Below the pieces are notes generated by a model that saw nothing but the letters and a program-made list of their open reading frames with translations, made no database searches and had not been told where the DNA came from. DNA of 64,000 nt, from positions 6,120 to 70,119 of the forward strand of contig JAAESQ010000884.1 in NCBI GenBank assembly GCA_024229275.1, in the 5' to 3' direction. Below, piece after piece: positions 4,267-61,508 of the stretch. A program made the translations under genes and the position numbers. The stretch is from a bacterium. GTDB taxonomy: Bacteria; Acidobacteriota; Thermoanaerobaculia; Thermoanaerobaculales; Sulfomarinibacteraceae. Every line of letters begins with the position of its first letter. Position 1 is the stretch's first letter.

Positions 4267-4510
4267 CGCTATCGCTCCAAGCGTCCCTGCAGATCGGACA
4301 AGTAGCGACAATGACGGCTAGTCGTTTGTCGATCTTGTGAATGTCATCCTTCATCGCACGGGCATCTTCCTTGACTTGGAGTTGGTCCGCCCTCAATGAC
4401 CGAACATCCTTCTTCAGTCCGTTGAGGCCGTACTTCACCGCCAAGCCGCCAGCGATCATCATGACGATGATGCTGCCAATGTGGAAGATGAGATCCAGGG
4501 TTGCCGTCAC
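4256..4510 (-). CDS. small single-pass membrane protein (84 aa)
   Basis: TM IGSIIVMMIAGGLAV, then a charged coiled-coil-like helix and a C-terminal CPIC. Confidence 0.5.
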   Translation of the reverse strand: MTATLDLIFHIGSIIVMMIAGGLAVKYGLNGLKKDVRSLRADQLQVKEDARAMKDDIHKIDKRLAVIVATCPICRDAWSDSDDG

Positions 4511-4512
4511 AA

Positions 4513-4794
4513 TCAGAGCGGGTCCTTCCGGACGACTTTAAGGCTGGAATCGAACTCCACCTGATGATCTCGAAGTACTGCCGTGAAAGCCTCCCCAGCC
4601 CGCGTGCCGAATTCAGTAGCACGGTCTAGTAGTGCCTCCACGGACTTGTCTATTCCGAAGAGCTGAGCTGAGGCAGCGCCGCCATGGCCCTCGACACCAC
4701 CAAGCGCATCAACGATAGCTACCTTGTGTTCGATCGGGAGTTCAGCAACATGCTCCCTGATCCACAGCAACGCTTCTCTGAGATCATCGGTCAT
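4513..4794 (-). CDS. hypothetical helical protein (93 aa)
   Basis: Start taken at ATG 4794 (MTDDLREALLWIREH). The ORF-track version begins at 4845. Confidence 0.45.
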   Translation of the reverse strand: MTDDLREALLWIREHVAELPIEHKVAIVDALGGVEGHGGAASAQLFGIDKSVEALLDRATEFGTRAGEAFTAVLRDHQVEFDSSLKVVRKDPL

Positions 4795-30620: not shown

Positions 30621-31838
30621 CTACGCCATGTAGTCGGTGACGTTGGCGAGAATCCCGTGATGCTTCTCACGTTGGACCTTGTATCCAAACTCGGTCAGGA
30701 TCTCGTCCGACTTTCCGTCAGCGCCGTTCTGGATCACGTCCCGGTACACCTTGGTGTCCCGGTTGATCCCGTTGTTGTTGAGATACAGGAAGGTCAGCTC
30801 AGCCATGTCGAGACCGATGCCGATGTTGCCCCACCCGTAGGCATCGTTCGGGTCGTTCTCAAGCATCCAGTCGCGCACGACGTCGATTGTGCCGTGAGGC
30901 GTCTGGACTTCCAGAATTTGCATGCCGAACTTGGTCTCGCGCGGCGTCACCATCAGGTGGCTGACGCCCCAGGCCTGAATTGCTTCGACGATGATCGGGG
31001 CGAACACCCCGAGCTTCCGCTTCTTGTTGCCATAGCGGAACAGGGTGCGCGACCACGCGACGAACTTTTTGTAGGTCAAGGTGCCGCTGACGTCGGTCAC
31101 GTTGGTGGTGATGGTCTCGATCAGCCCCATGGTGCTGCGGATCGGGTAACTGGTCGGCCCGCCCTGAAGCGACTGGGAAGCCTGTCCCCAGATCAGGACG
31201 GAGTTCATCTTCTGCTTGTGCTCGACCATATCCTCGATATGGGCCAGGTCGCGGTCGCTCCTGCCGGCGGTGCCGTAGGTGTTGGTGGCGATGGCGGTGT
31301 TCGAGAACTGGGTCGGAGTCCGGACGATCTGGAGATAGGTCTCCTTGCGGGTGGGGATTGCGCGCTTCTGGGACGGGAAGCTCGAATACTCTTCGAACAT
31401 CGGCCCGATGATGCGAAGCGGCTGGCTGGCGACGATCACCTGCAGGCCGCTGCCGCCCACATTGCGCGAAACTGTCAAAGCGTTGGTGGACACACTCACG
31501 ACCCGGATCATTTCTCCGATGGCGTAGGTGCCCTTGATCGGCGGAACGATGAAGCAGTCACCGGCCACGAACTTCGTGCCGTCAGCCACGTTCACCGTGA
31601 CGGAGCCGGCATTGGCGGCCGTGTAGTCCTGGTTGACTGCCCACCGTGCGAGCCGGTCCTTCTCGTACCACTCGCAGTGGGTGGATTTGACGGCCCGGCG
31701 ACGTTTCAGCGCGTTCATCATGGTGATGAGCGGTGCCGCATCGGGGTCGTAATACAGAATTTTGGGACCAACGTCGCGAACATTGCGCGTCTCGTTGATC
31801 TCCTGGTAGGTCGTAAGTGGAGTGATGTACTGTGCCAT
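30621..31838 (-). CDS. major capsid protein (HK97 fold, N4/SU10-like type)
   Basis: 405 aa, directly after the scaffold gene and before a terminator. The N-arm motif is PLITMMNALKRRRAV..EWYEKD. A small beta-barrel insertion (VADGTKFVAGDCFIV..VVSVSTNALTVSR) is typical of this capsid class, as recalled from memory. Confidence 0.8.
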   Translation of the reverse strand: MAQYITPLTTYQEINETRNVRDVGPKILYYDPDAAPLITMMNALKRRRAVKSTHCEWYEKDRLARWAVNQDYTAANAGSVTVNVADGTKFVAGDCFIVPPIKGTYAIGEMIRVVSVSTNALTVSRNVGGSGLQVIVASQPLRIIGPMFEEYSSFPSQKRAIPTRKETYLQIVRTPTQFSNTAIATNTYGTAGRSDRDLAHIEDMVEHKQKMNSVLIWGQASQSLQGGPTSYPIRSTMGLIETITTNVTDVSGTLTYKKFVAWSRTLFRYGNKKRKLGVFAPIIVEAIQAWGVSHLMVTPRETKFGMQILEVQTPHGTIDVVRDWMLENDPNDAYGWGNIGIGLDMAELTFLYLNNNGINRDTKVYRDVIQNGADGKSDEILTEFGYKVQREKHHGILANVTDYMA

Positions 31839-36096: not shown

Positions 36097-37068
36097 TTAA
36101 TTGGCCCTCCTTGAAGTCATCGAACTGATGTAGCGCGGCTCCGCAGTGAGCAGATACCGCAAGTTGTCGATCATGTGGCGGCGAGCTTTGACGCCGCGCT
36201 GCCAGAGTTCCTCGTCCTGGAGTGAACCGGCCTTGCGCCCCTTGTAGCGATGCCGGCGCATCTCAAGCCGCAGTTCGTGGACGTTACTGGAAAAGTGAAG
36301 CCGCGGCCATTGCCCGAACTGGTTGTGGTGGCGGGGCTCAAGCGCTTCGTGGACAGCATCGTAGCCGGCGCGGTGCCGCTTCACCGGGTCCGCGCACTCG
36401 ATACCGAACTGCGCGAACGTATCGGCGATCGACTGCTGAGAGTCCTCATCCTTGGTGGCGATGAACCCCTTGCCGGCTTGATCCATATACCGCTCGACGA
36501 TCTTCTCTCCGCCGTTCATGGCGTAGAGGCCGTAGCAGTCCGGCGTATTCGGGTTCTGCCAGTCGATTCGGTTGCCTTCGTACCAGGCGATCGCCCCGCA
36601 GTAATCCTTGTAGTTGAACTTGGTTTCGTCGTCGCCGTCACGCGGGGTCTTGGTCTGAGCGTAGAAGTTCGACGGCCACATCTCGCGGTAGACGTACATG
36701 TCTTCCCACTGATCGACGCCGAGCCAGAGCACTGCGGTCGGTGTCCGCGGGTGCGGATCGATCGAGCAGTACATGGTCATCTCGCGTGGGATGGCCTCAT
36801 GGGGAATGACGTGGATCGACTCGTCGTACTCAGGAAAGACCAGCGAGCCGGTCAGCGCGTAGTGATCAAGGTCGATTTCCTGGCGAAAGAAAGCGTCCGA
36901 GAGGAATTGTTTTCGCTTCTCTGTGCGCCACTCCTCGGATCGCTTGTCGGGATCGGCGGTAGCGTGGACACGGAGAACGGCGTGGCCCTCGGGAGTGACG
37001 CAGAACAGCATTCCGGTGCCTGGGCGGCGGATACTGGGATCGGCGTTGAGCGCCGCTATATTAGGCAT
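36097..37068 (-). CDS. terL: large terminase, C-terminal part (ATPase lid plus RNase-H-like nuclease)
   Basis: 323 aa. Nuclease Asp motifs are MYCSIDPHP, YMDQAGKG and MIDNLRYLL. It starts 13 nt before the stop of the ATPase ORF, in another frame. Confidence 0.75.
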   Translation of the reverse strand: MPNIAALNADPSIRRPGTGMLFCVTPEGHAVLRVHATADPDKRSEEWRTEKRKQFLSDAFFRQEIDLDHYALTGSLVFPEYDESIHVIPHEAIPREMTMYCSIDPHPRTPTAVLWLGVDQWEDMYVYREMWPSNFYAQTKTPRDGDDETKFNYKDYCGAIAWYEGNRIDWQNPNTPDCYGLYAMNGGEKIVERYMDQAGKGFIATKDEDSQQSIADTFAQFGIECADPVKRHRAGYDAVHEALEPRHHNQFGQWPRLHFSSNVHELRLEMRRHRYKGRKAGSLQDEELWQRGVKARRHMIDNLRYLLTAEPRYISSMTSRRAN

Positions 37069-37844
37069 TCCACCTCATCCAGTCCCATGAGCTGTCGCAA
37101 TTCCTCGTCTTGCTCATCCTCGGCGTCATACTCTTCCGGCCAGCTCGTCGGCACTGCGGACATATCCATATCCGCGAACGGGCCGGGGTTCGGGCTCGAT
37201 AGCGCAATGATGTGCAGGCAATCGCAGCCGACCGCCGTGTTGTACGCCTGGTCGAATTCGTCGTAGTGCGCCGCCTCGTCGCAGACATAGATGGTCGGGT
37301 GCTCGGATCGGATCTTGGCGGGGTTGCCGGTCAGCGCCAGCCAGCGGGCCCGGTTGCGGAGGGTGAATTCGTGTTCCGGCTGCCTGTCCGGATCCTTGTC
37401 GACCGGCCAGCGCGCCTTCAGTTCCGGAAGCGAATTCTTCCACATCTCCTTCACGTAGCGCACGTCGTGAATCGCCCTCTCCTCGTCGGCAGACTGGAAG
37501 ATGGTGGACGTGCCGGCGTGATTGAAACCGAAGTGGGCCGTCCAGGCGGAGACGCTCCAGGAGCACATCATCGTGCGCGACTTCGGGATAAGCTTGACTT
37601 TTAGAGGGCATCGGTCAAGATAGTTCAGAATCGTCCGCAGGTATGTCTTCGCTGGGAACGGCTTGTACGGGTTCATTGGATCCTGCTCGTCCAGCGTCTT
37701 GGTCCCCCGCACCATCCAGTAGAACTTGTCCCTCAAGCAGCGCCGGACTACCAACTCCCGCTCGATCCGCTCCATTTCCTGGACGGCTTGATTGAGCGCG
37801 AATGTATTTACCCGCGGTGCGCTGGAGCTTGGTGTAGCGCTCAA
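37056..37844 (-). CDS. terL: large terminase, N-terminal ATPase part
   Basis: 262 aa. Deviant Walker A LIPKSRTMMCSWS, Walker B IYVCDEAAHY, coupling motif IIALSSPNPG, and an acidic tail. TTG start at 37844 is preceded by GGAGGAG. Confidence 0.75.
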   Translation of the reverse strand: MSATPSSSAPRVNTFALNQAVQEMERIERELVVRRCLRDKFYWMVRGTKTLDEQDPMNPYKPFPAKTYLRTILNYLDRCPLKVKLIPKSRTMMCSWSVSAWTAHFGFNHAGTSTIFQSADEERAIHDVRYVKEMWKNSLPELKARWPVDKDPDRQPEHEFTLRNRARWLALTGNPAKIRSEHPTIYVCDEAAHYDEFDQAYNTAVGCDCLHIIALSSPNPGPFADMDMSAVPTSWPEEYDAEDEQDEELRQLMGLDEVECLI

Positions 37845-38424
37845 ATAACTCCTCCACTGGAGCCTGGGTGATCAGCAACTGCCCGTCGATTTCCAATTTG
37901 TCCGGCTTGGTGGCGCCCCAGACTTTGAGGAACATTGCCACCGCCGCGTTGATGGCGGCGTTGTCTGGGGTTTCGAGCCAGATGATGTCGCCGCCGGTCC
38001 CTTTGCAGGCGGCGCACGGCCGCGTTTTGCGGTCTTCCTTCCCTGTTTTCTGAAGTTTGCGCCGTCCGGTCCCATTGCACTTGTCGCAGTCGCGTCTGAT
38101 CCGGCCCTGATGGTCGGTAAGGGGCCGCTTCTTCGTCGCTTCGAGTTGCTTGCCCAGCACTGTCAGTACGTGCTGCAGGCTGAGCCCCAGCGCGGTAGCG
38201 ACAGCTTCCGCCTCGGTGGCGACGGTATTCTGGATCTGGCGAACCTGCTCGAACTCGTGGTCGGCGACGATGACCTCGATCTCGGTGACTTTCCGCTTCC
38301 ATTTCTTTGAGGCTTTGTGGAGCCATGACCGATACTGCGTCTGATTGGTTGGCAGAGCTTCGCGGAAGTCCTGGTAGATCTCCCAACCAATATTGGCGTC
38401 CGAGAGTTCGTGGCCGAATTTCAC
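37615..38424 (-). CDS. small-terminase-position protein with DnaJ-type CxxCxGxG zinc finger
   Basis: 269 aa immediately upstream of terL. Motifs CDKCNGTG and CAACKGTG. The last ~75 codons overlap terL and look low-complexity. The function is inferred from position only. Confidence 0.4.
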   Translation of the reverse strand: MKFGHELSDANIGWEIYQDFREALPTNQTQYRSWLHKASKKWKRKVTEIEVIVADHEFEQVRQIQNTVATEAEAVATALGLSLQHVLTVLGKQLEATKKRPLTDHQGRIRRDCDKCNGTGRRKLQKTGKEDRKTRPCAACKGTGGDIIWLETPDNAAINAAVAMFLKVWGATKPDKLEIDGQLLITQAPVEELFERYTKLQRTAGKYIRAQSSRPGNGADRAGVGSPALLEGQVLLDGAGDQDAGRAGSNEPVQAVPSEDIPADDSELS

Positions 38425-40018: not shown

Positions 40019-40503
40019 CAGCTTATTGGGTAGATACCAGCATCCTTTGGCCGAAAGACCTTCAGCGACATAGAAGTTGCTGCAGCCCGAGACAATACGA
40101 AGCCCCTGCCTGTGTGTGTCGAATTCTCGATGATCTTGTGGCTGCGGCTCGCCTCTTGTAGTTGCTTCTTGCTGAAGACAAAGACGATGTCGTGGTTCCC
40201 GATGATGTAAAGCCAGCCATTGTCGTTTCTGAATATTCCGGAGTCGATCCAATGCTCATTCTCTGGATGAGACTTCTCTTGGACTTCGATGAATACATTG
40301 CGCGTCTCGGCTAGTAGGCGATCGAACTTGATTTCAAAACCGGCACGGTTCTCTCCCTTGTCGTCCTGGTAGAGTTTGCTCTTATACGGGACGATGGCAA
40401 TGCCATGAGCACAGAGAAGTTCGGTAACAAAATCCTCATATTCCGCGCCCTGTTCTAGTTTGCGTGCGTAGTACTCGTCGTAGTCGGAGCTTGGTTGCCC
40501 CAT
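40018..40503 (-). CDS. possible PD-(D/E)xK-type nuclease-like protein (161 aa)
   Basis: DDKGENRAGFEIKFD ... VFIEVQEK resembles D..ExK nuclease motifs. It is directly downstream of, and overlaps, the methyltransferase gene. The assignment is tentative. Confidence 0.35.
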   Translation of the reverse strand: MGQPSSDYDEYYARKLEQGAEYEDFVTELLCAHGIAIVPYKSKLYQDDKGENRAGFEIKFDRLLAETRNVFIEVQEKSHPENEHWIDSGIFRNDNGWLYIIGNHDIVFVFSKKQLQEASRSHKIIENSTHTGRGFVLSRAAATSMSLKVFRPKDAGIYPIS

Positions 40504-41531
40504 GTATCCCAGCCCTCGGGTGCTTCTCTGGCAAACACTTCGATCCGGTTGCCATTCGGATACAGCTTGTCTATCAACTCTCGGAAGTAAGCCGGTTTCT
40601 CGGAATGCTTGTGGGTACGCTGAATAGAGACAACGCTGTCGTGGAGTTCCTTCACGTCAGGCAGGCAGCTTCCCTTGGTGGCGATGAGCAGGTACTCGTG
40701 GCGCACTGAGACGTAGTTGCCATAATTGTGACGAACCTTGTCCCACACCATCGACGCCTTATACTCGAAGCCCCAAGCTTCGATGACTTGGATGGCGTCT
40801 GGTAGCATTGGCGATGTCGTCCAGAGGAACAGGACGGAATCCTCGGCTGACGCTTCGATGATCTGCTGCGCAAGCGGTGGTTTCGTCTCATCGCCGCCTT
40901 GCCCAACACGGCACAGTTCTGAGGTGCTCATCGTGCCATAGTGCCGCTCAGCGTGTCCGTAGTCATCAAGCCCTTTACTGCCGTACTCCCAAGGCGGATC
41001 GGCGTAGAGGACTCGATAAATGCCGTCAATGGGCTCCGGCGTCTCTACGTTGGCGTGCGCCAGCATTCGGTGGACCTCACTGATGGTTTTGCGGTTCTCG
41101 CGGATCTCTTCATGAAGCGGCGGGTGGTCATTTAGGAGATCGCAAAGCCAGACACACTCCACTGCTTCGTTCTTCGTCAACCCCAGCTCGGCCAGCGTGG
41201 GCGCGGTCTGTTCTAGCGGTTCCTGTCGGGTACCACCAGAAGCGTCCCGCCCCTTGAGTTGCCCTCTGGTGCCCTCGTTCTTGTCTGCGTCCTTCCAGAA
41301 GGCTCCGAGCGTCGTCCGGCCGTCGATCTTGACTGCGTGGGCGAAGTTGATGGCCTCTATCCCCATCCGCTGTCTTTTGGCATACTCCTCAGCAGCGTAG
41401 GCCATATCTGCCACTTTCTTGGCGTCGCCGATCGTCTTGACTTCGGAAAGAAGCTGCAGGGCCTTCTCTAACTTCTGCTGAAGTTCGTTGCTCTGCGGCT
41501 TGAACTCAATCACCGACTGTGCTGCTGGCAC
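40455..41531 (-). CDS. MT-A70 family N6-adenine DNA methyltransferase with N-terminal helical domain
   Basis: Catalytic motif YADPPWEY and downstream VLFLWTT, EAWGF, HSEKP. Start taken at GTG 41531, after AAAGGAA. The ORF-track version (to 41732) adds a junk-like Arg/Ser-rich 67 aa. Confidence 0.8.
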   Translation of the reverse strand: MPAAQSVIEFKPQSNELQQKLEKALQLLSEVKTIGDAKKVADMAYAAEEYAKRQRMGIEAINFAHAVKIDGRTTLGAFWKDADKNEGTRGQLKGRDASGGTRQEPLEQTAPTLAELGLTKNEAVECVWLCDLLNDHPPLHEEIRENRKTISEVHRMLAHANVETPEPIDGIYRVLYADPPWEYGSKGLDDYGHAERHYGTMSTSELCRVGQGGDETKPPLAQQIIEASAEDSVLFLWTTSPMLPDAIQVIEAWGFEYKASMVWDKVRHNYGNYVSVRHEYLLIATKGSCLPDVKELHDSVVSIQRTHKHSEKPAYFRELIDKLYPNGNRIEVFAREAPEGWDTWGNQAPTTTSTTHAN

Positions 41532-41565
41532 GTCAATATTCCTTTTGGTTGTTGACAATAGGCAT

Positions 41566-42036
41566 CTATACCTCCAGCGGAGCCTTATGATTGGCCCCAA
41601 TCTCCGAGATGACCGGTCTGTCGGTCGTCGTCGTTGGCCCCGCCGGAGGCAACCTGGGCCCATTGACATGGGCGTTGACCTGGAACTGTGTAAGGGAGCC
41701 ATGCTGGGCGGCGCAGACGGCCTGATCCGCACGCTGGAGCCAGCGCAGGCCTTTGGCGCGTCTGCGGGAGATGTAGTTTTTGCTCAATGGGACAGAGAGC
41801 CCGGCGCGGATCGCCCGTTGCGCAACCATGATGGGGACGAGCAGCAACAGGGAACGAAGCTTGGTGTGATGCCGATTGAAGTCGGCATCGACCATGCTCT
41901 GCTCGACCAATGGGCGCACTTCTTTCGCCGGGGCCGTAAAGAGGAGCAATCTAGAATCCCTGCAACGAACAGGGATTTTGACCGCTGGATTCTCGAAAAG
42001 GTAATTCAGGATGGCCGTGCGTAGGATTGCCTGCAT
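41566..42036 (-). CDS. hypothetical protein (156 aa)
   Basis: ORF track. It may be the first gene of the long minus-strand transcription unit. No family recognised. Confidence 0.4.
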   Translation of the reverse strand: MQAILRTAILNYLFENPAVKIPVRCRDSRLLLFTAPAKEVRPLVEQSMVDADFNRHHTKLRSLLLLVPIMVAQRAIRAGLSVPLSKNYISRRRAKGLRWLQRADQAVCAAQHGSLTQFQVNAHVNGPRLPPAGPTTTTDRPVISEIGANHKAPLEV

Positions 42037-42280
42037 CGACGCCGGGTTGGGAATGGCGCTTTACTGGACCAGAAGCCCTCTGGCGGAGGCGAAGCGGCCG
42101 GGGCCGCTGTGTCAGTACGCACACACAGTTTGGCACAGCCCGAACAGCAATTGCAAGTGCTTGTTTCCGATAGGCTTACCGACGATACCGTGCAATCGCC
42201 GTGAGATTCGTAGCACGATCAGCATACGTTCCACGTGAAACTTGCTACGGAAGTCGGTGAAATCTGGTAGGATACGGGGC

Positions 42281-42688
42281 ATGAGGACCATTCTGCTACT
42301 GCTCTCTCTTTCGTTTTTGCTGCTCGCTCAAGATCCGCTGCCGATGCGTTCCTGGGCGTTCTTGTTCAGTCCAGCGCACTCTGTGCATGACGCGGACGAA
42401 CCGAAGCCTGTTTACAGCGCCAGCGTTCACATCGTCTTTGAGGTGACGAACTCGGGTCCTTTCCGAATCGATCTGACATTGGTCACCAAAGAGACCGCAG
42501 ACTTGCCGGAGGCAGATCAAGACATTTACCAGATGCAGACAGCGAATATCGTTGCCAGCAGTGCTGAGGTGGCGCGGGGCGCGGCGACCACCATGATGGC
42601 CATCACGAGGCCCGATCTCATCATCAAGGCGGCGAATGTGTTCAGGATGGTGGAAGAGCACCACAGTCAGGTAACGCCAGTGCAGTAG
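42281..42688 (+). CDS. secreted protein (135 aa), isolated plus-strand gene
   Basis: MRTILLLLSLSFLLLAQDP signal peptide. TAGGAT lies 7 nt before the ATG, so the mRNA may be leaderless or short-leader. It is flanked by minus-strand genes. Confidence 0.5.
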   Translation: MRTILLLLSLSFLLLAQDPLPMRSWAFLFSPAHSVHDADEPKPVYSASVHIVFEVTNSGPFRIDLTLVTKETADLPEADQDIYQMQTANIVASSAEVARGAATTMMAITRPDLIIKAANVFRMVEEHHSQVTPVQ

Positions 42689-42710: not shown

Positions 42711-43622
42711 TCACCATAGCCGCAGTTGAGCGTGCTGGCCGGCTATGTTGTAGCCTAGGCCGTACTCGGCGATGATCTGTTTCCCGTCACATACCACATT
42801 CATCGGGAAGATCTTCAGCCGCCTGGATACGCCATTCCCTTCGAGAACGAGCATGTCGAGGTCGTCGAGATTCACTGAGAAGGCGAGGACGTCGCTGTCG
42901 TCGAGCATGGGTTCGTGGCAGATGGTCCAGATCTCGCTCGAAATATCCAATTTTGAGCCGCACCAACGCTCGAATTCTTGCAGCAACATGGTGGAGGTGA
43001 TCAAAAGCCTGCGCCGTTTGTTTGGGGGACGGTGATCGGGGCAGGTGATGGCATATTCGGCAAACTCTATGAAGTTGTTTCGATTCAACTGGCCGTTGCA
43101 ACTCCAGACTCGATCTTCGGTGAGTTGGGCGAGCCCCATGGTTGTCCTGAGTGGCGCGACGAATGACGGTTGGGGATAAGGCCTTGACACTGTGGTCGAT
43201 TTTCGCGCTGCGGTGCCAAACAGAAACGCCAAGTTCATACTTTGCTTCGTTTTGCGGATCATGTCGGCGATGCTATCGTCATGCGCCACCGGGTGGCTGA
43301 ATTCCGGCACTACAGCCAAAGTCGGCCCGAGATTCCGGAATATCTGGGTGTAGGTGGTTCGACCGTCAGGCAGCGAAATCTCGACATCCTTGACGCTGCG
43401 GGTGCGATCACGCGCCAGGGCGGTGATGAGCGGCTGTTCGTCGGGATGGAGGCCATAAAGCTCGTCGTGAACATCGAATTCGTTACCGGTCGGCTGCCAG
43501 CGTGGGCGATAACTCTGTTCGTACCAAGGTGTTGGGTCTGATTCCTGCTCCACCACTTTGGCAGCTGTGGCCGCCGCGACCGGGGCTCCGAGCAACGTAG
43601 CAACAAACTCTTTGCGTGTCAT
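42711..43622 (-). CDS. truncated HK97-type capsid-like paralog with signal-like N-terminus (303 aa)
   Basis: It shares collinear motifs with the capsid gene 30621..31838. The pairs are PLITALARDRTRSV/PLITMMNALKRRRAV, TTYTQIFRN/ETYLQIVRT, IADMIRKTKQSMNLAFLFG/IEDMVEHKQKMNSVLIWG and RTTMGLAQL/RSTMGLIET. Further pairs are KRRRLLITSTMLLQEFERW/KKRKLGVFAPIIVEAIQAW and IIAEYGLGY/ILTEFGYKV. It lacks the beta-barrel insertion. Its N-terminus is MTRKEFVATLLGAPVAAATAAKV. Confidence 0.6.
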   Translation of the reverse strand: MTRKEFVATLLGAPVAAATAAKVVEQESDPTPWYEQSYRPRWQPTGNEFDVHDELYGLHPDEQPLITALARDRTRSVKDVEISLPDGRTTYTQIFRNLGPTLAVVPEFSHPVAHDDSIADMIRKTKQSMNLAFLFGTAARKSTTVSRPYPQPSFVAPLRTTMGLAQLTEDRVWSCNGQLNRNNFIEFAEYAITCPDHRPPNKRRRLLITSTMLLQEFERWCGSKLDISSEIWTICHEPMLDDSDVLAFSVNLDDLDMLVLEGNGVSRRLKIFPMNVVCDGKQIIAEYGLGYNIAGQHAQLRLW

Positions 43623-43747
43623 CGAGATCTATTCTACACTGGAAGGCAACGAGAGAGAACAACCTCGAAGTTCATCCGACGCAGGTCCGGGGCCGGTCAT
43701 TTCATCGTGGCCGGCCCTTTCCGTTGCGGGTGTATACTGGGAGCGGA

Positions 43748-44089
43748 ATGAGCAAGCGTAAAGCCTTCATGGACAAGCTGAAGACGATTTTCTGCGCCGT
43801 GTTCCGGCACAGCAACATCGAGGAGCAGTTCTGGGGCGAGCACTATTGCGGCCGTTGCCGCGCCAAGCTCGGAGACAGTCTGGCCGGGGTGTACAGGAAC
43901 AGCCAAGTGGTCGGCATCCACTGCGACTGCGAGGGCTGCCGGGAGCGGTACGCCAAGATGGGCTGGATGGACAAGTTTCTGGCTGCCAAGCCGGAATGGC
44001 TCGGCGAGCCGCCCGGCTATGCGGAGCGTAAGCGCAAAGAGATTGATCTGGATCTGGAGAGGTTGCCACCCGGAGTCGAGCAGTTATGA
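43748..44089 (+). CDS. Cys-rich small protein (113 aa)
   Basis: Start at ATG 43748 after GGGAGCGGA. CGRC ... CDCEGC cysteine clusters. Confidence 0.5.
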   Translation: MSKRKAFMDKLKTIFCAVFRHSNIEEQFWGEHYCGRCRAKLGDSLAGVYRNSQVVGIHCDCEGCRERYAKMGWMDKFLAAKPEWLGEPPGYAERKRKEIDLDLERLPPGVEQL

Positions 44090-44319
44090 CCCGCCGAACA
44101 CTACTCTCGCTGATCGGCGCCTTGGCTGGCGCAAAGGCGTGGGCGCGGGAGCGCATCGTGGTGCGGCTCCGACAACGGCAGCCGTTCTACCCTGATGCGC
44201 GCATCATCGTCGTCTCACCCGACAAGCAATCCGGAAGCAGGTTCTTGAAGGATGAGATTATGAGGATCACGCACGCCTCCGGTGGCCGGATCACAGTGCA
44301 GCGGGGGCGCAAAGCCTGA
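44086..44319 (+). CDS. small protein with twin-arginine-like signal (77 aa)
   Basis: MTRRTLLSLIGALAGAKAWA. ATGA overlap with the upstream ORF. Confidence 0.45.
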   Translation: MTRRTLLSLIGALAGAKAWARERIVVRLRQRQPFYPDARIIVVSPDKQSGSRFLKDEIMRITHASGGRITVQRGRKA

Positions 44320-51902: not shown

Positions 51903-52120
51903 CGAAACAGCGTTTAGGCTTTGCGTCATCCCTGCTGTTTTGCATAGGCGCGGCGTTGCTGATGGCTCTTTTCCTGATGGCTGGCAAACCAACCTGGAAG
52001 GAGATATACCAACAGAACGAAATCCACTCCCTCAAGACCCAGCGCGAGCAGTGCCGAAGAGATCATCTGAGGAAACTGCGGGAATGTAATCAGGAACTCC
52101 GAGATCTGAGGAGAAAATGA
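51899..52120 (+). CDS. single-pass membrane protein with coiled coil (73 aa)
   Basis: TM LGFASSLLFCIGAALLMALFLMA. ATGA overlaps on both sides. Confidence 0.5.
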   Translation: MTKQRLGFASSLLFCIGAALLMALFLMAGKPTWKEIYQQNEIHSLKTQREQCRRDHLRKLRECNQELRDLRRK

Positions 52121-53034
52121 CCGCCCTAACCCCAGTACGCCCGAACCTCGAAGAACTGGTGGCTGTGGCTACTGCGGCGGTGGACTCGGAGCATAGCCGG
52201 CGCGCGTACTCCCGAGCGCTCCGGGACTTCCTGTCGTGGTGCCAAGCGCGAGAACTGCCGTTTGAGCGGGCGACGGTGCAGCGGTACCGCATGGAGCTCG
52301 CCCAGCAGAAGGCCCCGGCGAGCGTGAATCAGGCGCTCAGCGCAATCAAGTCCCTTGCCCGTGAAGCGATGGACCGTTTTGTGCTACCAGACGCCACAGG
52401 TGCCGCTATCGTCCAGGTACGGAGCGTTCCTCAGCGCGGCCGACGCGCGGGTAACTGGCTCACCTTGGACCAAGCCAAGCGGCTGATTGACGCGCCGCCG
52501 GCCAACAGTTTGTCAGGACTCCGGGACCGGGCACTGCTCGGGGTGTTGCTCGGATCCGGAGTCCGCCGGCAGGAGTGCGCCAGCATCCAGGTGGAGCAGG
52601 TAGTCCGGCGCTCCGGCCGGTGGGTGGTGCTCGACCTCGCGCGGAAGCGCGATCGGGTGGCCACCGTGCCGCTGCCTGCCTGGGTGCGGCCCCGGCTCAA
52701 AGCATGGTGGGCGGCTGCCGACATCACCGCCGGGCCGGCGTTCCGCGCGGTCGGGCAAGGTGACCGGCTGCTGGGGCCGCTCAGCGATTCCGGGGTCTGG
52801 TGGGTGGTCCAGGCGTGGGGCCAGCGGCTGGGGTTGGAGGTCAGACCTCACGACCTCCGCAGAACTGGCGCCGCCCTGGCGCTCGATGGCGGGGCGAGTC
52901 TCCGCCAGATTCAGGTGATGCTCGGCCATGCCTCCATCCAGACCACCGAGCGGTACCTCCGGACCATCACAGAACTGCACGATCCGGCGTGCGATAAGAT
53001 CGAGCTAGGGGGAAAGGAGAAAGAGGGAGAATGA
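52117..53034 (+). CDS. int: tyrosine recombinase / phage integrase (XerC/D-like, 305 aa)
   Basis: N-terminal SAM-like core-binding region (RAYSRALRDFLSWC). Catalytic-domain motifs are RDRALLGVLLGSGVRRQE, HDLRRTGA and LGHASIQTTERYL. Confidence 0.85.
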   Translation: MTALTPVRPNLEELVAVATAAVDSEHSRRAYSRALRDFLSWCQARELPFERATVQRYRMELAQQKAPASVNQALSAIKSLAREAMDRFVLPDATGAAIVQVRSVPQRGRRAGNWLTLDQAKRLIDAPPANSLSGLRDRALLGVLLGSGVRRQECASIQVEQVVRRSGRWVVLDLARKRDRVATVPLPAWVRPRLKAWWAAADITAGPAFRAVGQGDRLLGPLSDSGVWWVVQAWGQRLGLEVRPHDLRRTGAALALDGGASLRQIQVMLGHASIQTTERYLRTITELHDPACDKIELGGKEKEGE

Positions 53035-54665: not shown

Positions 54666-55449
54666 TCCGCCACTTACTCCCGTCAAGGCTCTGCGCCACC
54701 CGTGTCGACTTCTGGCTGAATAGCTGCGGGTATAGATCCCAGTCCTGCGGACAGTCCGCGCCGAACTCGCACGCCTCCCGGTGCAGACGCCAGCCGTTCT
54801 TGTGGACCAGGTTCGTGAAGATAGCCTGCTCTGTGCGGTGCTCGCGGAAGCCACGGTGCTCCGGCGCCAGCACGCTCGGGTCGAAGGTCTGGCAGTGCCG
54901 GTTCACACAGTAGGCCAGCCATTCCTGCAGGAACTGGTTGATGCGCCATCTCCCTTTCTCTAAGAGTATGAACCGCGCGACTGCGCAGCCGGCATCTCGG
55001 TAACGCTTGGTGTCTTGCCCCATAGCGATCAGGCAGTCGCGTTTGTTCCAGTCGCCGTTGCGGAGCGCCCGGTCCTTCCCGGTCGCCATGAATACCATGG
55101 AGCCGAGATGGTCCTCGCAGATGTCGTACAGCACCCCGAGGTCGGCAATCGGGTAGGTGTCGGCATCTACGTAGAGCACAATGTCACCGTCGCTCATGTA
55201 GTCCCGCATGGCGCACTGGATGAGGAAAGGTTTCCAACTGAACCATCCAAAGCCCCGGCCGCGGCCTTCGTTGCCCGGCCCACGGTGCAACCAGAGCCAC
55301 TGATTCTGATGATAGAAATCCGTCCGCTTCAGCCAAACATCATCGTAGACCCGTACCTCGTCCACGCCGAAGTCAGGGGCACGCTTGATGATCTTCTCAG
55401 TCGTCTTGTCGTAGGCCGCGCCGCTGAACGTGATGAGGAGCCGCTTCAC
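54658..55449 (-). CDS. putative nucleotide-diphospho-sugar glycosyltransferase (263 aa)
   Basis: FSWKPFLI..GDIVLYVDADT (DxD) after a Rossmann-like N-terminus. ATGA overlap with the transaldolase gene. Confidence 0.5.
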   Translation of the reverse strand: MKRLLITFSGAAYDKTTEKIIKRAPDFGVDEVRVYDDVWLKRTDFYHQNQWLWLHRGPGNEGRGRGFGWFSWKPFLIQCAMRDYMSDGDIVLYVDADTYPIADLGVLYDICEDHLGSMVFMATGKDRALRNGDWNKRDCLIAMGQDTKRYRDAGCAVARFILLEKGRWRINQFLQEWLAYCVNRHCQTFDPSVLAPEHRGFREHRTEQAIFTNLVHKNGWRLHREACEFGADCPQDWDLYPQLFSQKSTRVAQSLDGSKWRNV

Positions 55450-56165
55450 AGCGTGTACCCCGCCTTCTGCGCGTCGTCGTGGAACTGGCGCACGGTTTCC
55501 AGTGAACGCTGTTCCAAGGATGCCCCGATACTGTCCAACTTGGCCAGTATCTCCGGGGAGACGGTGATGATGTCGCAGCCCGCCCGATCAGCATGGATTA
55601 TGTCGTAGACCTGCCGCGTGCTCGCCCAAAGCAACTGGGCTTCACCCCAGCCAGAATACAAGGTCACTGTCCAGTCCGCCCGCTTCATGTGTTCTACGGG
55701 ATCGCCCCCGAGGTCAGCAATTCTCCCTGCGAAGACCGAAAGAATCATCGATGTCTTGTCGCTGTAGGCACCGAGCGCAAGCTGCAACTGATAGGCCGTG
55801 AAAATACTGGTGATGTTAAGCTTAATGCCGTCGGCGGCAAGCTCGGCGATAATACTCTCTGTCGTCGCCCCCTGTGTGTTGACGATCGGGATCTTGACGT
55901 AGACGTTGTCATCCCACGCAGAAATCACTCGGGCCTGCTTCGCCATCTCATCCACATCATCGGTGACAACCGGGAACGAGATCGGCTTACCACCAGCCGC
56001 TGGCAACGCCTGCTCAACGAACTCCTGGTAGTTTGTCCAGCCAGCCTTGGCCATCAGTGTAGCATTGGTCGTGTAGCCATTCACCAGCGGATGATCGTAG
56101 TACTTCAGCTCCGCGCTATCGAGATATATCTCGATATTCGTTTCCTCGATCTGTAGGGGATTCAT
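55446..56165 (-). CDS. tal: transaldolase / fructose-6-phosphate aldolase family protein (TalC/FSA-like, 239 aa)
   Basis: It is collinear with E. coli FSA from memory. Shared motifs are IYLDSA, NGYTTNATL (GVTTNPS), the YVKIP catalytic-Lys motif, NITSIF, SVFAGRI and AGCDIITVSPE. Confidence 0.75.
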   Translation of the reverse strand: MNPLQIEETNIEIYLDSAELKYYDHPLVNGYTTNATLMAKAGWTNYQEFVEQALPAAGGKPISFPVVTDDVDEMAKQARVISAWDDNVYVKIPIVNTQGATTESIIAELAADGIKLNITSIFTAYQLQLALGAYSDKTSMILSVFAGRIADLGGDPVEHMKRADWTVTLYSGWGEAQLLWASTRQVYDIIHADRAGCDIITVSPEILAKLDSIGASLEQRSLETVRQFHDDAQKAGYTL

Positions 56166-60242: not shown

Positions 60243-60408
60243 GGGAATCAGTCCTATTTGCGAGCATCTCCTTTACTGCCGCCTCAATGGCTTGGATGAT
60301 CGTGGCCGGGGGTGTCAATTTCAATAGACGCCCAAGAAAAGCAGCGCAGTCGCATCCGCTACGGTTCCCGCAGACAACGCAAGTCTTACTGATTGTCACA
60401 TCAGGCAC
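60235..60408 (-). CDS. small Cys-containing protein (57 aa)
   Basis: GTG 60408 follows GGAGG. CVVCGNRSGCDC. It overlaps both neighbours by 8 nt. Confidence 0.35.
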   Translation of the reverse strand: MPDVTISKTCVVCGNRSGCDCAAFLGRLLKLTPPATIIQAIEAAVKEMLANRTDSHA

Positions 60409-61336
60409 GCTGCACCTCCGGCATCTGGCGCACGTGCAAGTCCTTGGGCCATTCGGACATGTCGGAGCCTTTACTGGAGAGGATGGGCTCTGTAGCGTTT
60501 TTCCATTCAACCTCATCAGGCCATCGCGAGGTCTGGCGATAGCGTGGCACATCAAATGGCTTCGCCCCCAACTGCTTCACAAACACTGGCAGCCCAGTCT
60601 CTTTGCACTGCCGCACCACCTGCCGAATCCACGACACGTTGCACGGCCGCGCTCCCGGGCCGCTCTCTCCGCCGACGATCACCCAGTCGATGCCCTCAAA
60701 GTTGAGCGTGCCGAGGTCTTCCAGCAACGGCTCCAAACTGAGGAACCGGATAGCGGCTGGCGTCTTGCGCAGCCAGTCGATGCGGTCAAGCGTGGCGCGG
60801 TTCTCAACGGAGACGCCGAGGTGGATGTTAGAAAACGGCAGTGACGGGAGCGAGTGCTTCCCTCCGAATGAAGGATGACCTTGACCTGGGCGAAGGCGAT
60901 CAGCGGCTAGCTCGATTTGATTGTGTGTGTCCCTCGTCCAATGCCGTTTGTACATCTGCTCCGCCCGCTTCGTGAGCACCTGAAACGTGTGCTGTGGGCA
61001 CAGCGCCATCACCGCGAAGACTTCGTCTATCACCTTGTCCGGTAGCGACTCGTGGAACAGGTCCGACATCGAGTTGACGAACACCGTGCGCGGCTTGCGC
61101 CAGTGCAGCGGAGCCTGCAATCGCTCAGGAGCGAGCGTTATCTTGCCGGTCCATTTCAGCGGCTGCCCCTTCGGTGTAACAACATCCCGGTATAAGTCGC
61201 TGATGACAGGATCTGGATTGTAGGCCAACCGACGTGCCTCTCGAATCGCATAGCAATTCTTGCAGCCAGGACTGCATTTCTCGCATCCAACGGTCGGATT
61301 CCAGGCTTCCTCGGTCCACTCAATCTTAGTCGGCAT
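60401..61336 (-). CDS. phage Gp37/Gp68 (DUF5131)-like protein
   Basis: Start at ATG 61336. TKIEWTEEAWNPTVGCEKCSPGCKNCYA is the signature N-terminus of this family, as recalled from memory. Confidence 0.65.
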   Translation of the reverse strand: MPTKIEWTEEAWNPTVGCEKCSPGCKNCYAIREARRLAYNPDPVISDLYRDVVTPKGQPLKWTGKITLAPERLQAPLHWRKPRTVFVNSMSDLFHESLPDKVIDEVFAVMALCPQHTFQVLTKRAEQMYKRHWTRDTHNQIELAADRLRPGQGHPSFGGKHSLPSLPFSNIHLGVSVENRATLDRIDWLRKTPAAIRFLSLEPLLEDLGTLNFEGIDWVIVGGESGPGARPCNVSWIRQVVRQCKETGLPVFVKQLGAKPFDVPRYRQTSRWPDEVEWKNATEPILSSKGSDMSEWPKDLHVRQMPEVQRA

Positions 61337-61508
61337 CCTGACCTCGCTTCCGCACGCACTCGGGATGCGGGCAGTGCTGATCGCACCAGAATCCCGTAGT
61401 GACAACGTGGATCGGGTCTGCAGCTTCGAGGAAGTCACAATCCGGATGTTGGCAACAGGCCCCGATGATGCTACCGCTCATGACGTGGTCCGGGCGCTTG
61501 TCAGGCAT
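61326..61508 (-). CDS. small Cys/His-rich protein (60 aa)
   Basis: CCQHPDC ... CDQHCPHPEC. It overlaps both neighbours by 8-11 nt. Confidence 0.4.
   Translation of the reverse strand: MPDKRPDHVMSGSIIGACCQHPDCDFLEAADPIHVVTTGFWCDQHCPHPECVRKRGQDAD

Follow-up and report, generated by a model that had tools for sequence, protein, structure and literature searches.

We have analyzed a second capsid-related gene in the genome of an uncultured phage, found on contig JAAESQ010000884.1 of assembly GCA_024229275.1. The window, that is, the whole stretch of 64,000 nucleotides that was analyzed, covers most of this phage genome of ~72 kb (the record is 71,839 bp long). The gene lies apart from the head genes and encodes a paralog of the resident major capsid protein (MCP). 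This paralog descends from the HK97-fold capsid protein of SU10/DUF5309 type that the phage group has; it diverged long ago and strongly, and its reading frame is intact. It is shorter than the MCP and begins with a sequence resembling an export signal. The explanation that we favour, with doubt and confidence about evenly balanced, is that it is an exapted accessory protein with a capsid fold, exported or membrane-targeted and not shell-building, which perhaps acts in competition between phages. Coordinates of the main features are collected in Table 1.

Table 1. Location of the capsid paralog, its parts, its neighbours and the resident capsid gene in the window (aa, amino acids; ORF, open reading frame)
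Feature	Position	Strand	Basis or remark
MCP paralog, coding sequence, 303 aa	42711..43622	-	ATG start; stop codon 42711-42713
Export-signal-like N-terminus MTRKEFVATLLGAPVAAATAAKV, codons 1-23	43554..43622	-	aligns with the twin-arginine signal of P0047
Retained N-arm motif DVHDELYGLHPDEQPLITALA, codons 50-70	43413..43475	-	BLASTP to MCP 17-51; collinear motif in P0047
HK97-fold core, codons 88-303	42714..43361	-	AlphaFold2 model, Foldseek, alignments
Resident MCP, 405 aa, SU10_MCP family	30621..31838	-	Pfam PF17236, E 3.2e-33
Divergent intergenic region, 125 bp	43623..43747	.	two extended -10-like motifs; putative promoter role
135-aa ORF with Sec-type signal MRTILLLLSLSFLLLAQD	42281..42688	+	convergent with the paralog; ORF list
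77-aa ORF with canonical twin-arginine signal MTRRTLLSLIGALAGAKAWA	44086..44319	+	ORF list, signal scan, codon-position GC

The start of the paralog is the first start codon after the upstream stop in the ORF list, and its GC content at codon positions 1, 2 and 3 (0.58, 0.43 and 0.68) resembles that of the other genes of the phage. The frame looks coding, and the similarity of its product to the MCP is real. By BLASTP the paralog matches the resident MCP with an expected value (E) of 6e-11 and 23% identity across 253 columns. A preliminary description of this DNA had listed six collinear motif pairs between the two proteins, and all of them fall inside BLASTP alignments: five in this main alignment, and the sixth, the N-arm motif PLITAL/PLITMM, in a second alignment (E 0.011) that covers MCP residues 17-51. 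A profile of the MCP family, built from 39 MCP homologs, matches the paralog with an hhalign probability of 99.2% (E 3e-19). When the paralog is combined with P0047, a protein of 309 aa described below, the resulting two-member profile matches the MCP profile with an hhalign E of 1.5e-40. Judged by these comparisons, homology between the paralog and the MCPs is far above chance. The paralog is homologous to members of PF17236 (SU10_MCP/DUF5309) along the P- and A-domains, and scores under the Pfam gathering score of that family (17.2 vs 24.1 bits, E 0.0038). With the family profile, the resident MCP finds a solved homolog, 9in6, at E 3.3e-59; its predicted model contains the inserted beta-domain and a spine helix at residues 195-217.

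Identity of the paralog to the resident MCP is ~20-23% and to the MCPs of other phages up to 27%. Because it is no closer to the resident MCP than to these other MCPs, the paralog is not a recent local duplicate. That origin was rejected both on this equal distance and on the long branch that the paralog forms with P0047.

The absence from the paralog of an insertion of ~100 aa, proposed in the preliminary description, was recovered in the family alignment and in the profile alignment, where MCP residues from about 52 to 157 (~100 residues) have no counterpart. In the model of the resident MCP the lost span holds a small beta-domain, with strands between residues 47 and 124, and a further strand at 140-146; read by the usual HK97 topology, it would comprise the E-loop region, including the first strand of the E-loop and the inserted domain. 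A 16-residue hairpin at MCP residues 297-313 is also missing from the paralog and is present in P0047. The paralog would thus have an incomplete set of the domains for lattice formation (N-arm, E-loop, P-domain and A-domain). Since all 43 MCP homologs in the alignment, distant ones included, contain the region deleted in the paralog, the short architecture is derived, and the possibility that the short form represents the ancestral MCP was rejected on the same count (43/43).

What remains is a recognizable capsid core. It holds the P-domain strand TYTQIFRN, a spine helix at residues 111-135, the A-domain helices and strands and the C-terminal strands, and both the RTTMGL motif and the C-terminal E-YG...H motif are preserved. 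Upstream of this core and downstream of the signal, the paralog also keeps the conserved N-arm motif DVHDELYGLHPDEQPLITAL, which fits the pattern RDV...L.P..APL.T.L. The AlphaFold2 model of the paralog has a predicted local distance difference test (pLDDT) score of 72 and a predicted template modelling (pTM) score of 0.71, with residues 88-303 confident. Foldseek searches with this model place the capsid protein of phage VP1 (9in6) at the top (E 3.7e-12), followed by those of Pa223, R4C, DT57C and SU10 and by encapsulins; T5 is also among the capsid matches. The best matches are exclusively HK97 capsids or encapsulins, and those from a viral structure library are to capsid-type proteins only, called major capsid protein wherever they are named. 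The structural similarity to encapsulins is weaker than that to phage MCPs and extends to the generic HK97 fold only. Pairwise and profile similarity to the MCP are thus significant and the predicted fold is of HK97 type, so that BLASTP, hhalign and the predicted fold agree on a truncated HK97-type paralog of the resident MCP located outside the head module, as had been described.

Some minor features of the paralog sequence were noted. It has 5 cysteines, against a mean of 1.8 across 43 MCP homologs. Within the gene, a 36-nt tandem direct repeat at 42834-42905 (residues 240-263), 72% identical between its copies, encodes DDSDVLAFSVNL and then DDLDMLVLEGNG; this may be a small internal duplication or may have arisen by chance. 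Residues 33-42 (43497-43526), WYEQSYRPRW, resemble the MCP-family motif EW.E.DY.ARW found at MCP residues 57-66. In the paralog this segment is N-terminal of the N-arm motif, whereas its counterpart in the MCPs is C-terminal of it, and P0047 lacks it; a local rearrangement or a duplication of part of the sequence may have left it there. Around this segment hhalign and BLASTP choose two mutually exclusive alignments.

The N-terminus of the paralog has a positively charged n-region, a 16-residue uncharged h-region rich in Ala and Gly, and A-x-A-type sites. The best 12-residue mean Kyte-Doolittle hydropathy in the h-region, FVATLLGAPVAAATAA, is 1.94, and ATA and TAA sites follow it; the h-region and cleavage-site features were judged by inspection, here as in P0047. 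At the end of the n-region stands T-R-K-E-F-V, an RK variant with an acidic residue next to it, where P0047 has N-R-R-T-L-L. Among the 2021 ORF starts of the window, a simple scan for R[RK]-x-hydrophobic with a hydrophobic stretch behind it gave 5 hits, two of them the starts of the paralog and of its neighbour 44086..44319. Taken on its own, the N-terminus of the paralog is only suggestive of export.

The comparison with P0047 adds to this picture. When 1.84 billion cluster representatives were searched exhaustively with phmmer, P0047 was the sole other protein found. Its match to the paralog spans residues 3-294 of the latter (E 1.9e-5 library-wide, pairwise E 7e-19) at 26-29% identity, and is full-length with the N-terminus included. 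The N-terminus of P0047, MKLNRRTLLSALLGTPAVAMAG, is a canonical twin-arginine signal with ...PAVAMA|G as its A-x-A-type region. Over this part 7 of 20 residues are identical to those of the paralog, LLGxP among them. In P0047 the signal is followed by the whole MCP N-arm and then, at the same junction as in the paralog, by THTYTQVFRE; the same deletion of ~100 residues is therefore present in both. The preliminary description had the N-arm of the paralog replaced by what looked like a signal of the twin-arginine translocation (Tat) or general secretory (Sec) type, or a membrane anchor. The signal-like N-terminus stands, being aligned with the twin-arginine signal of P0047; the replacement does not, as the N-arm motif is retained.

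P0047 is nearer to the MCPs than is the paralog (hhalign E 2e-34; Pfam SU10_MCP 53.2 bits, above threshold). A neighbour-joining tree built on 228 shared columns joins the two as sisters in 163 of 200 bootstraps, a support that long-branch attraction could inflate, and places them beside a clade of ~400-aa MCPs whose members all have the insertion. From this grouping it follows that the architecture is derived and persistent. It is also very rare, for among about 15 billion proteins the combination of a capsid paralog and an export-type signal was seen in two phage lineages only. A word-indexed search of 5.8 billion clusters returned only the query itself, and a search of the same 5.8 billion with the two-member profile added only distant MCPs of ~480 aa. 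Family-profile pattern scans of IMG/VR, GTDB genomes and metagenomes of the Joint Genome Institute (JGI) gave a true MCP or nothing, and tblastn against 50,697 phage genomes gave no match to the paralog. P0047 itself is found on near-identical contigs from four JGI samples.

Rarity of this kind bears on the possibility that the paralog is a non-functional, drifting relic of an old MCP duplication or of a horizontal acquisition, with an N-terminus that has no present role. Its absence from the relatives that were checked, its long branch, the 16-residue deletion not found in P0047, the lack of a Shine-Dalgarno sequence and the degenerate RK-E motif would all suit a relic. We nonetheless think this unlikely. 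Although about 75-80% of its amino acids differ from those of every MCP, the 303 codons form an unbroken frame. At the GC content of the gene, with about 0.035 stops expected per random codon, the probability that such a frame stays open by chance is estimated at roughly 2e-5. The family motifs are full-length, the codon-position GC is typical of the phage, and the derived architecture is kept, together with the signal, in a second lineage. An open frame of 303-309 codons with full-length motifs, and a signal kept across this divergence, argues for selection on the protein product.

The position of the gene bears on a second alternative. The structural and packaging module is on the minus strand, from about 6.3 kb to 41.7 kb of the window, and contains the MCP gene, a scaffold-like gene, a portal-sized gene and the terminase large subunit (TerL) as two ORFs (PHROG). 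The start of the paralog gene is 10.9 kb from the MCP gene, in agreement with the ~11 kb first noted. The gene is not part of the head module; 4.9 kb separate it from the TerL ATPase gene, upstream of which it is found. The P0047 gene is similarly placed, 3.8 kb upstream of a TerL ATPase gene homologous to that of the window (41% identity full-length; 44-51% in the best tblastx segments). It belongs to a divergently transcribed operon with genes for a ribbon-helix-helix repressor-like protein and a pentapeptide-repeat protein, and the operon has small early-type genes. Both the paralog gene and the P0047 gene are in a variable accessory region between the early and the packaging genes.

In T4, the vertex protein gp24 is a paralog of gp23 with the full domain set, including the insertion domain, and is encoded by an adjacent gene that is conserved in T4-like phages. 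Like gp24, the protein studied here is an MCP paralog within one genome; unlike gp24, it is truncated, encoded 10.9 kb away and not found in the relatives checked. A minor virion protein, such as a vertex or accessory subunit related to the MCP as gp24 is to gp23, would explain a paralog in the same genome with a recognizable HK97 core, encoded on the strand of the structural module, and the N-terminus would then be a propeptide or assembly tag. We consider this very improbable, since the gene is outside the head module with an opposite-strand ORF between, was not found in those relatives with similar MCPs that were checked, and encodes a protein that lacks the E-loop for lattice contacts; the operon of P0047, for its part, holds small early-type genes and one for a repressor-like protein. 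The related SU10, moreover, makes both pentamers and hexamers from one MCP (PMC9509320).

Two roles suggested in the preliminary description lost ground. An encapsulin-like shell is unlikely because the E-loop region, the hairpin and a cargo gene are all missing, and the paralog matches no Pfam encapsulin family. A remnant of a satellite finds no satellite hallmark genes nearby, and the gene is embedded in a phage genome of ~72 kb, with the early module on one side and the packaging module on the other.

The paralog is the sole leftward gene between the rightward ORF 42281..42688 and a rightward gene run made up of a Cys-rich 113-aa ORF, the 77-aa twin-arginine ORF and a helix-turn-helix/replication-O-like gene. 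Its earlier portrayal as a lone minus-strand gene is correct in that the plus-strand ORFs on either side, 42281..42688 and 43748..44089, appear from their codon-position GC to be coding (0.56, 0.42 and 0.69 for the former, measured on the longer ORF 42242..42688); it is incomplete in that the minus strand is also that of the MCP gene and of the whole structural module. In the intergenic region between the divergent genes, GTGTAGAAT at 43631-43639 on the minus strand is 8 nt before the ATG of the paralog, and GTGTATACT at 43730-43738 on the plus strand is 9 nt before the ATG at 43748. The two may be extended -10 promoters that give leaderless or near-leaderless mRNAs. A leaderless transcript of the paralog is possible because the gene has no Shine-Dalgarno sequence.

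As an exported or membrane-targeted accessory protein, the paralog would be transcribed from a promoter of its own, located in the early control region between the divergent genes; the mRNA may be leaderless. Expression would occur early or in lysogeny, and not together with the late structural genes; lysogenic expression is considered because the phage has an integrase. The protein would fold in the cytoplasm and would then be exported by Tat (or Sec) or be anchored in the membrane by its signal. Sec export and an uncleaved anchor of the signal-arrest-release type are alternatives to Tat export because the h-regions are rich in Gly, Ala and Thr. Without an E-loop the protein would make none of the inter-capsomer contacts of a closed shell, so that in the cell envelope it would be monomeric or would form a small oligomer resembling a capsomer. 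The most speculative step is a function in phage competition or envelope modification, for example the exclusion of superinfecting phages, for which other signal-bearing accessory genes of temperate phages offer an analogy. In a more specific version, which is put forward tentatively and is somewhat doubtful, the paralog would belong to a family of Tat-exported capsid derivatives that lack the E-loop and have an extracytoplasmic function; they could form a capsomer-like ring in the periplasm, for instance, or act as binders that keep competing phages out. If true, this would be the first case of a phage exapting a phage capsid protein for use beyond the cytoplasm.

Several points weigh against the accessory, exported protein that we favour. 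The promoter motif was chosen post hoc and is not significant (GTGTAKAMT has these two matches only in the window, and 18 of 100 shuffles reach two matches), the gene is without the Shine-Dalgarno sequence that most genes of the phage have in a survey of such sequences, and no terminator was found after it. The signal has RK-E and not RR-x and matches neither Pfam TAT_signal (PF10518) nor the Tat-signal models of NCBIfam. P0047 likewise has no match among those NCBIfam models, and its TAT_signal score of 14.3 bits (E 0.041, with all 21 positions covered) is under the cut-off of 22.7. Residues 1-87 of the paralog model are of low confidence, and the alignment used for that model consisted mostly of MCP homologs, which biases it toward the MCP fold; the model is therefore not independent of the sequence homology. 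The additional hairpin deletion and the long branch would be expected of a decaying copy as well. The P0047 contigs are identical or differ by one non-synonymous nucleotide, and so give no power to measure selection. Finally, no family search tied a specific envelope function to the paralog.

A third alternative keeps the protein in the cytoplasm, or has it act there ahead of any export, as a mimic of capsids, either a decoy or inhibitor of capsid-sensing defences or a subunit that co-assembles with or poisons the assembly of MCP, its own or that of competitors. The retained A- and P-domain surfaces of the MCP family would serve such a mimic, and counter-defence genes occur in this region in the phage group: the MT-A70 methyltransferase of the window, an Acb2/Tad1-hairpin gene in a related locus and the pentapeptide-repeat gene next to P0047. 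MCP homologs that redirect assembly are also known (Ccm, PMC8569155). We regard the mimic as improbable. It is difficult to see why a cytoplasmic protein should keep an export-type signal in two copies that are 26-29% identical, the lost E-loop (and, in the window copy, the lost hairpin) removes the contacts for co-assembly, and binding to capsid sensors would risk triggering them; there is also no PADLOC or other family match that points to such a role.

Comparison with known systems brings out what is unusual in the proposed exported protein. With the SU10/DUF5309 MCPs (PF17236; SU10 7z45 and Vibrio phage VP1 9in6) the paralog has in common its homology, the core fold, the N-arm, TYTQIFR, the spine helix, RTTMGL and E-YG. 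It differs from them in the ~100 residues and the hairpin that are missing, in the added signal, in its location outside the head module, and in being rare and not conserved among relatives. The nearest precedent for a signal peptide is the anammox encapsulin, an HK97-fold protein with an N-terminal signal peptide and a proposed Sec route into the anammoxosome (PMC8346489). Like the paralog it has a signal proposed for membrane crossing. It is, however, a cellular protein with a fused cytochrome c domain and a complete shell-forming fold, whereas the paralog is phage-encoded, derived from an MCP, Tat-like in its signal, without an E-loop and without cargo. Family 4 "A-domain" encapsulins consist of nothing but an A-domain of about 100 aa, carry no signal peptide and are encoded in enzyme operons of archaea and Bacteroidetes (PMC8346489); they too are truncated HK97 folds outside a virion, and the paralog differs in keeping the P- and A-domains and part of the N-arm. 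Ccm of SaPIbov5 is a satellite-encoded MCP homolog with the full HK97 fold that redirects assembly to prolate capsids (Hawkins et al. 2021, PMC8569155), and the SU10 family also builds prolate heads (PMC9509320). Like the paralog, Ccm is a diverged MCP homolog that exists in addition to the main shell protein of the phage; it belongs to a satellite and co-assembles in the cytoplasm, whereas the paralog is encoded by the phage, is without the E-loop region and has an export-type signal.

To our knowledge, no known exclusion protein has a capsid fold, and family searches found no sequence similarity of the paralog to any superinfection-exclusion or moron protein. In its arrangement the gene nevertheless resembles the moron genes: it is a single gene opposite to both neighbours, in a variable region of a phage with an integrase, with a putative promoter of its own and a signal that would target the envelope. 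Signal-bearing "moron" and superinfection-exclusion proteins of temperate phages have been reviewed (PMC3594210, PMC11436027).

Known cases of re-use of the HK97 fold comprise encapsulins, truncated A-domain proteins, satellite Ccm proteins and vertex paralogs. Those on the phage side, as far as we know, all serve the assembly of capsids in the cytoplasm. It is unusual for a protein with a capsid fold to have a conserved export-type signal, here in a family of two members only, and literature searches on HK97 with twin-arginine and on DUF5309 turned up no HK97 protein described as having a Tat signal. If the conserved export signal and the lack of an E-loop mean what we propose, the HK97 fold can be recruited for a function in the envelope, and the two genes offer a tractable case for studying the conversion of a shell protein into something else. 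If either exclusion or capsid mimicry is true, a new type of protein would be added to the accessory and counter-defence region of these uncultured temperate podophage-like viruses.

The preliminary description had asked whether related phages keep the paralog, and no copy was found in the relatives searched. The search covered 43 loci fetched through the TerL ATPase gene, 8 of which have at least 4 kb upstream of it, and 10 kb on each side of the MCP gene in four related loci, L001 and L052-L054. In these loci there is no second MCP-like sequence, only true MCPs; the absence from L001 and L052-L054 is not strict because their flanks stop about 1 kb short of the equivalent position. The window itself has no MCP-like sequence besides the paralog and the resident MCP. 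Between 38.4 and 52 kb it shows no tblastx similarity to six related loci (L001, L004 and L008-L011). With a surrounding region so dissimilar in relatives, the paralog must be placed in a fast-turnover accessory region. There is no near DNA match for the phage among isolates, and the closest isolate MCPs, from Pseudomonas PaMx-type phages, are about 25% identical.

Within about 2 kb there are three putative exported proteins: the paralog, the 135-aa ORF and the 77-aa ORF. The 135-aa ORF may join the paralog in an accessory cluster of exported proteins, a suggestion based solely on adjacency. Neither of these two ORFs has a family match; the paralog and its neighbours have no PHROG function and no PADLOC (defence or anti-defence) match, and family searches found no enzyme domains in the ORFs around the paralog. 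Rfam holds nothing that matches an RNA element at the locus. A mobile cassette or invertible segment was rejected, as no meaningful direct or inverted repeats flank the paralog.

Other genes of the phage encode an MT-A70 DNA methyltransferase (40455-41732, minus strand), a tyrosine integrase (52117-53034, plus strand), a transaldolase-family auxiliary metabolic protein (55446-56165, minus strand) and a DUF5131 protein (60401-61438, minus strand). The integrase suggests a temperate lifestyle. TerL is encoded as separate ATPase and nuclease ORFs at 36097-37068 and 37056-37844 on the minus strand, and the same split is seen in L001 (3108-3857 and 3857-4855), a relative with a 61% identical MCP. 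The frame 37615..38424 is conserved with L001 and overlaps the ATPase ORF, and gene starts there are therefore uncertain.

Two of the related loci have features of their own. L052, with a 47% identical MCP, carries an Acb2/Tad1-hairpin (anti-CBASS/Thoeris sponge) gene at 4505-4729 on the plus strand, upstream of its portal-sized gene; its tail genes include a patatin-like one. In L004 the pentapeptide-repeat gene beside P0047 (8945-9586, plus strand) contains a 15-nt repeat in about 20 near-perfect copies. Positions 1-5467 of L004 (minus strand), downstream of the TerL ATPase homolog, encode GT2 glycosyltransferases, an epimerase/methyltransferase fusion and an FdtA-like protein, and these sugar-modification genes occupy the place of the nuclease and portal genes of the window.

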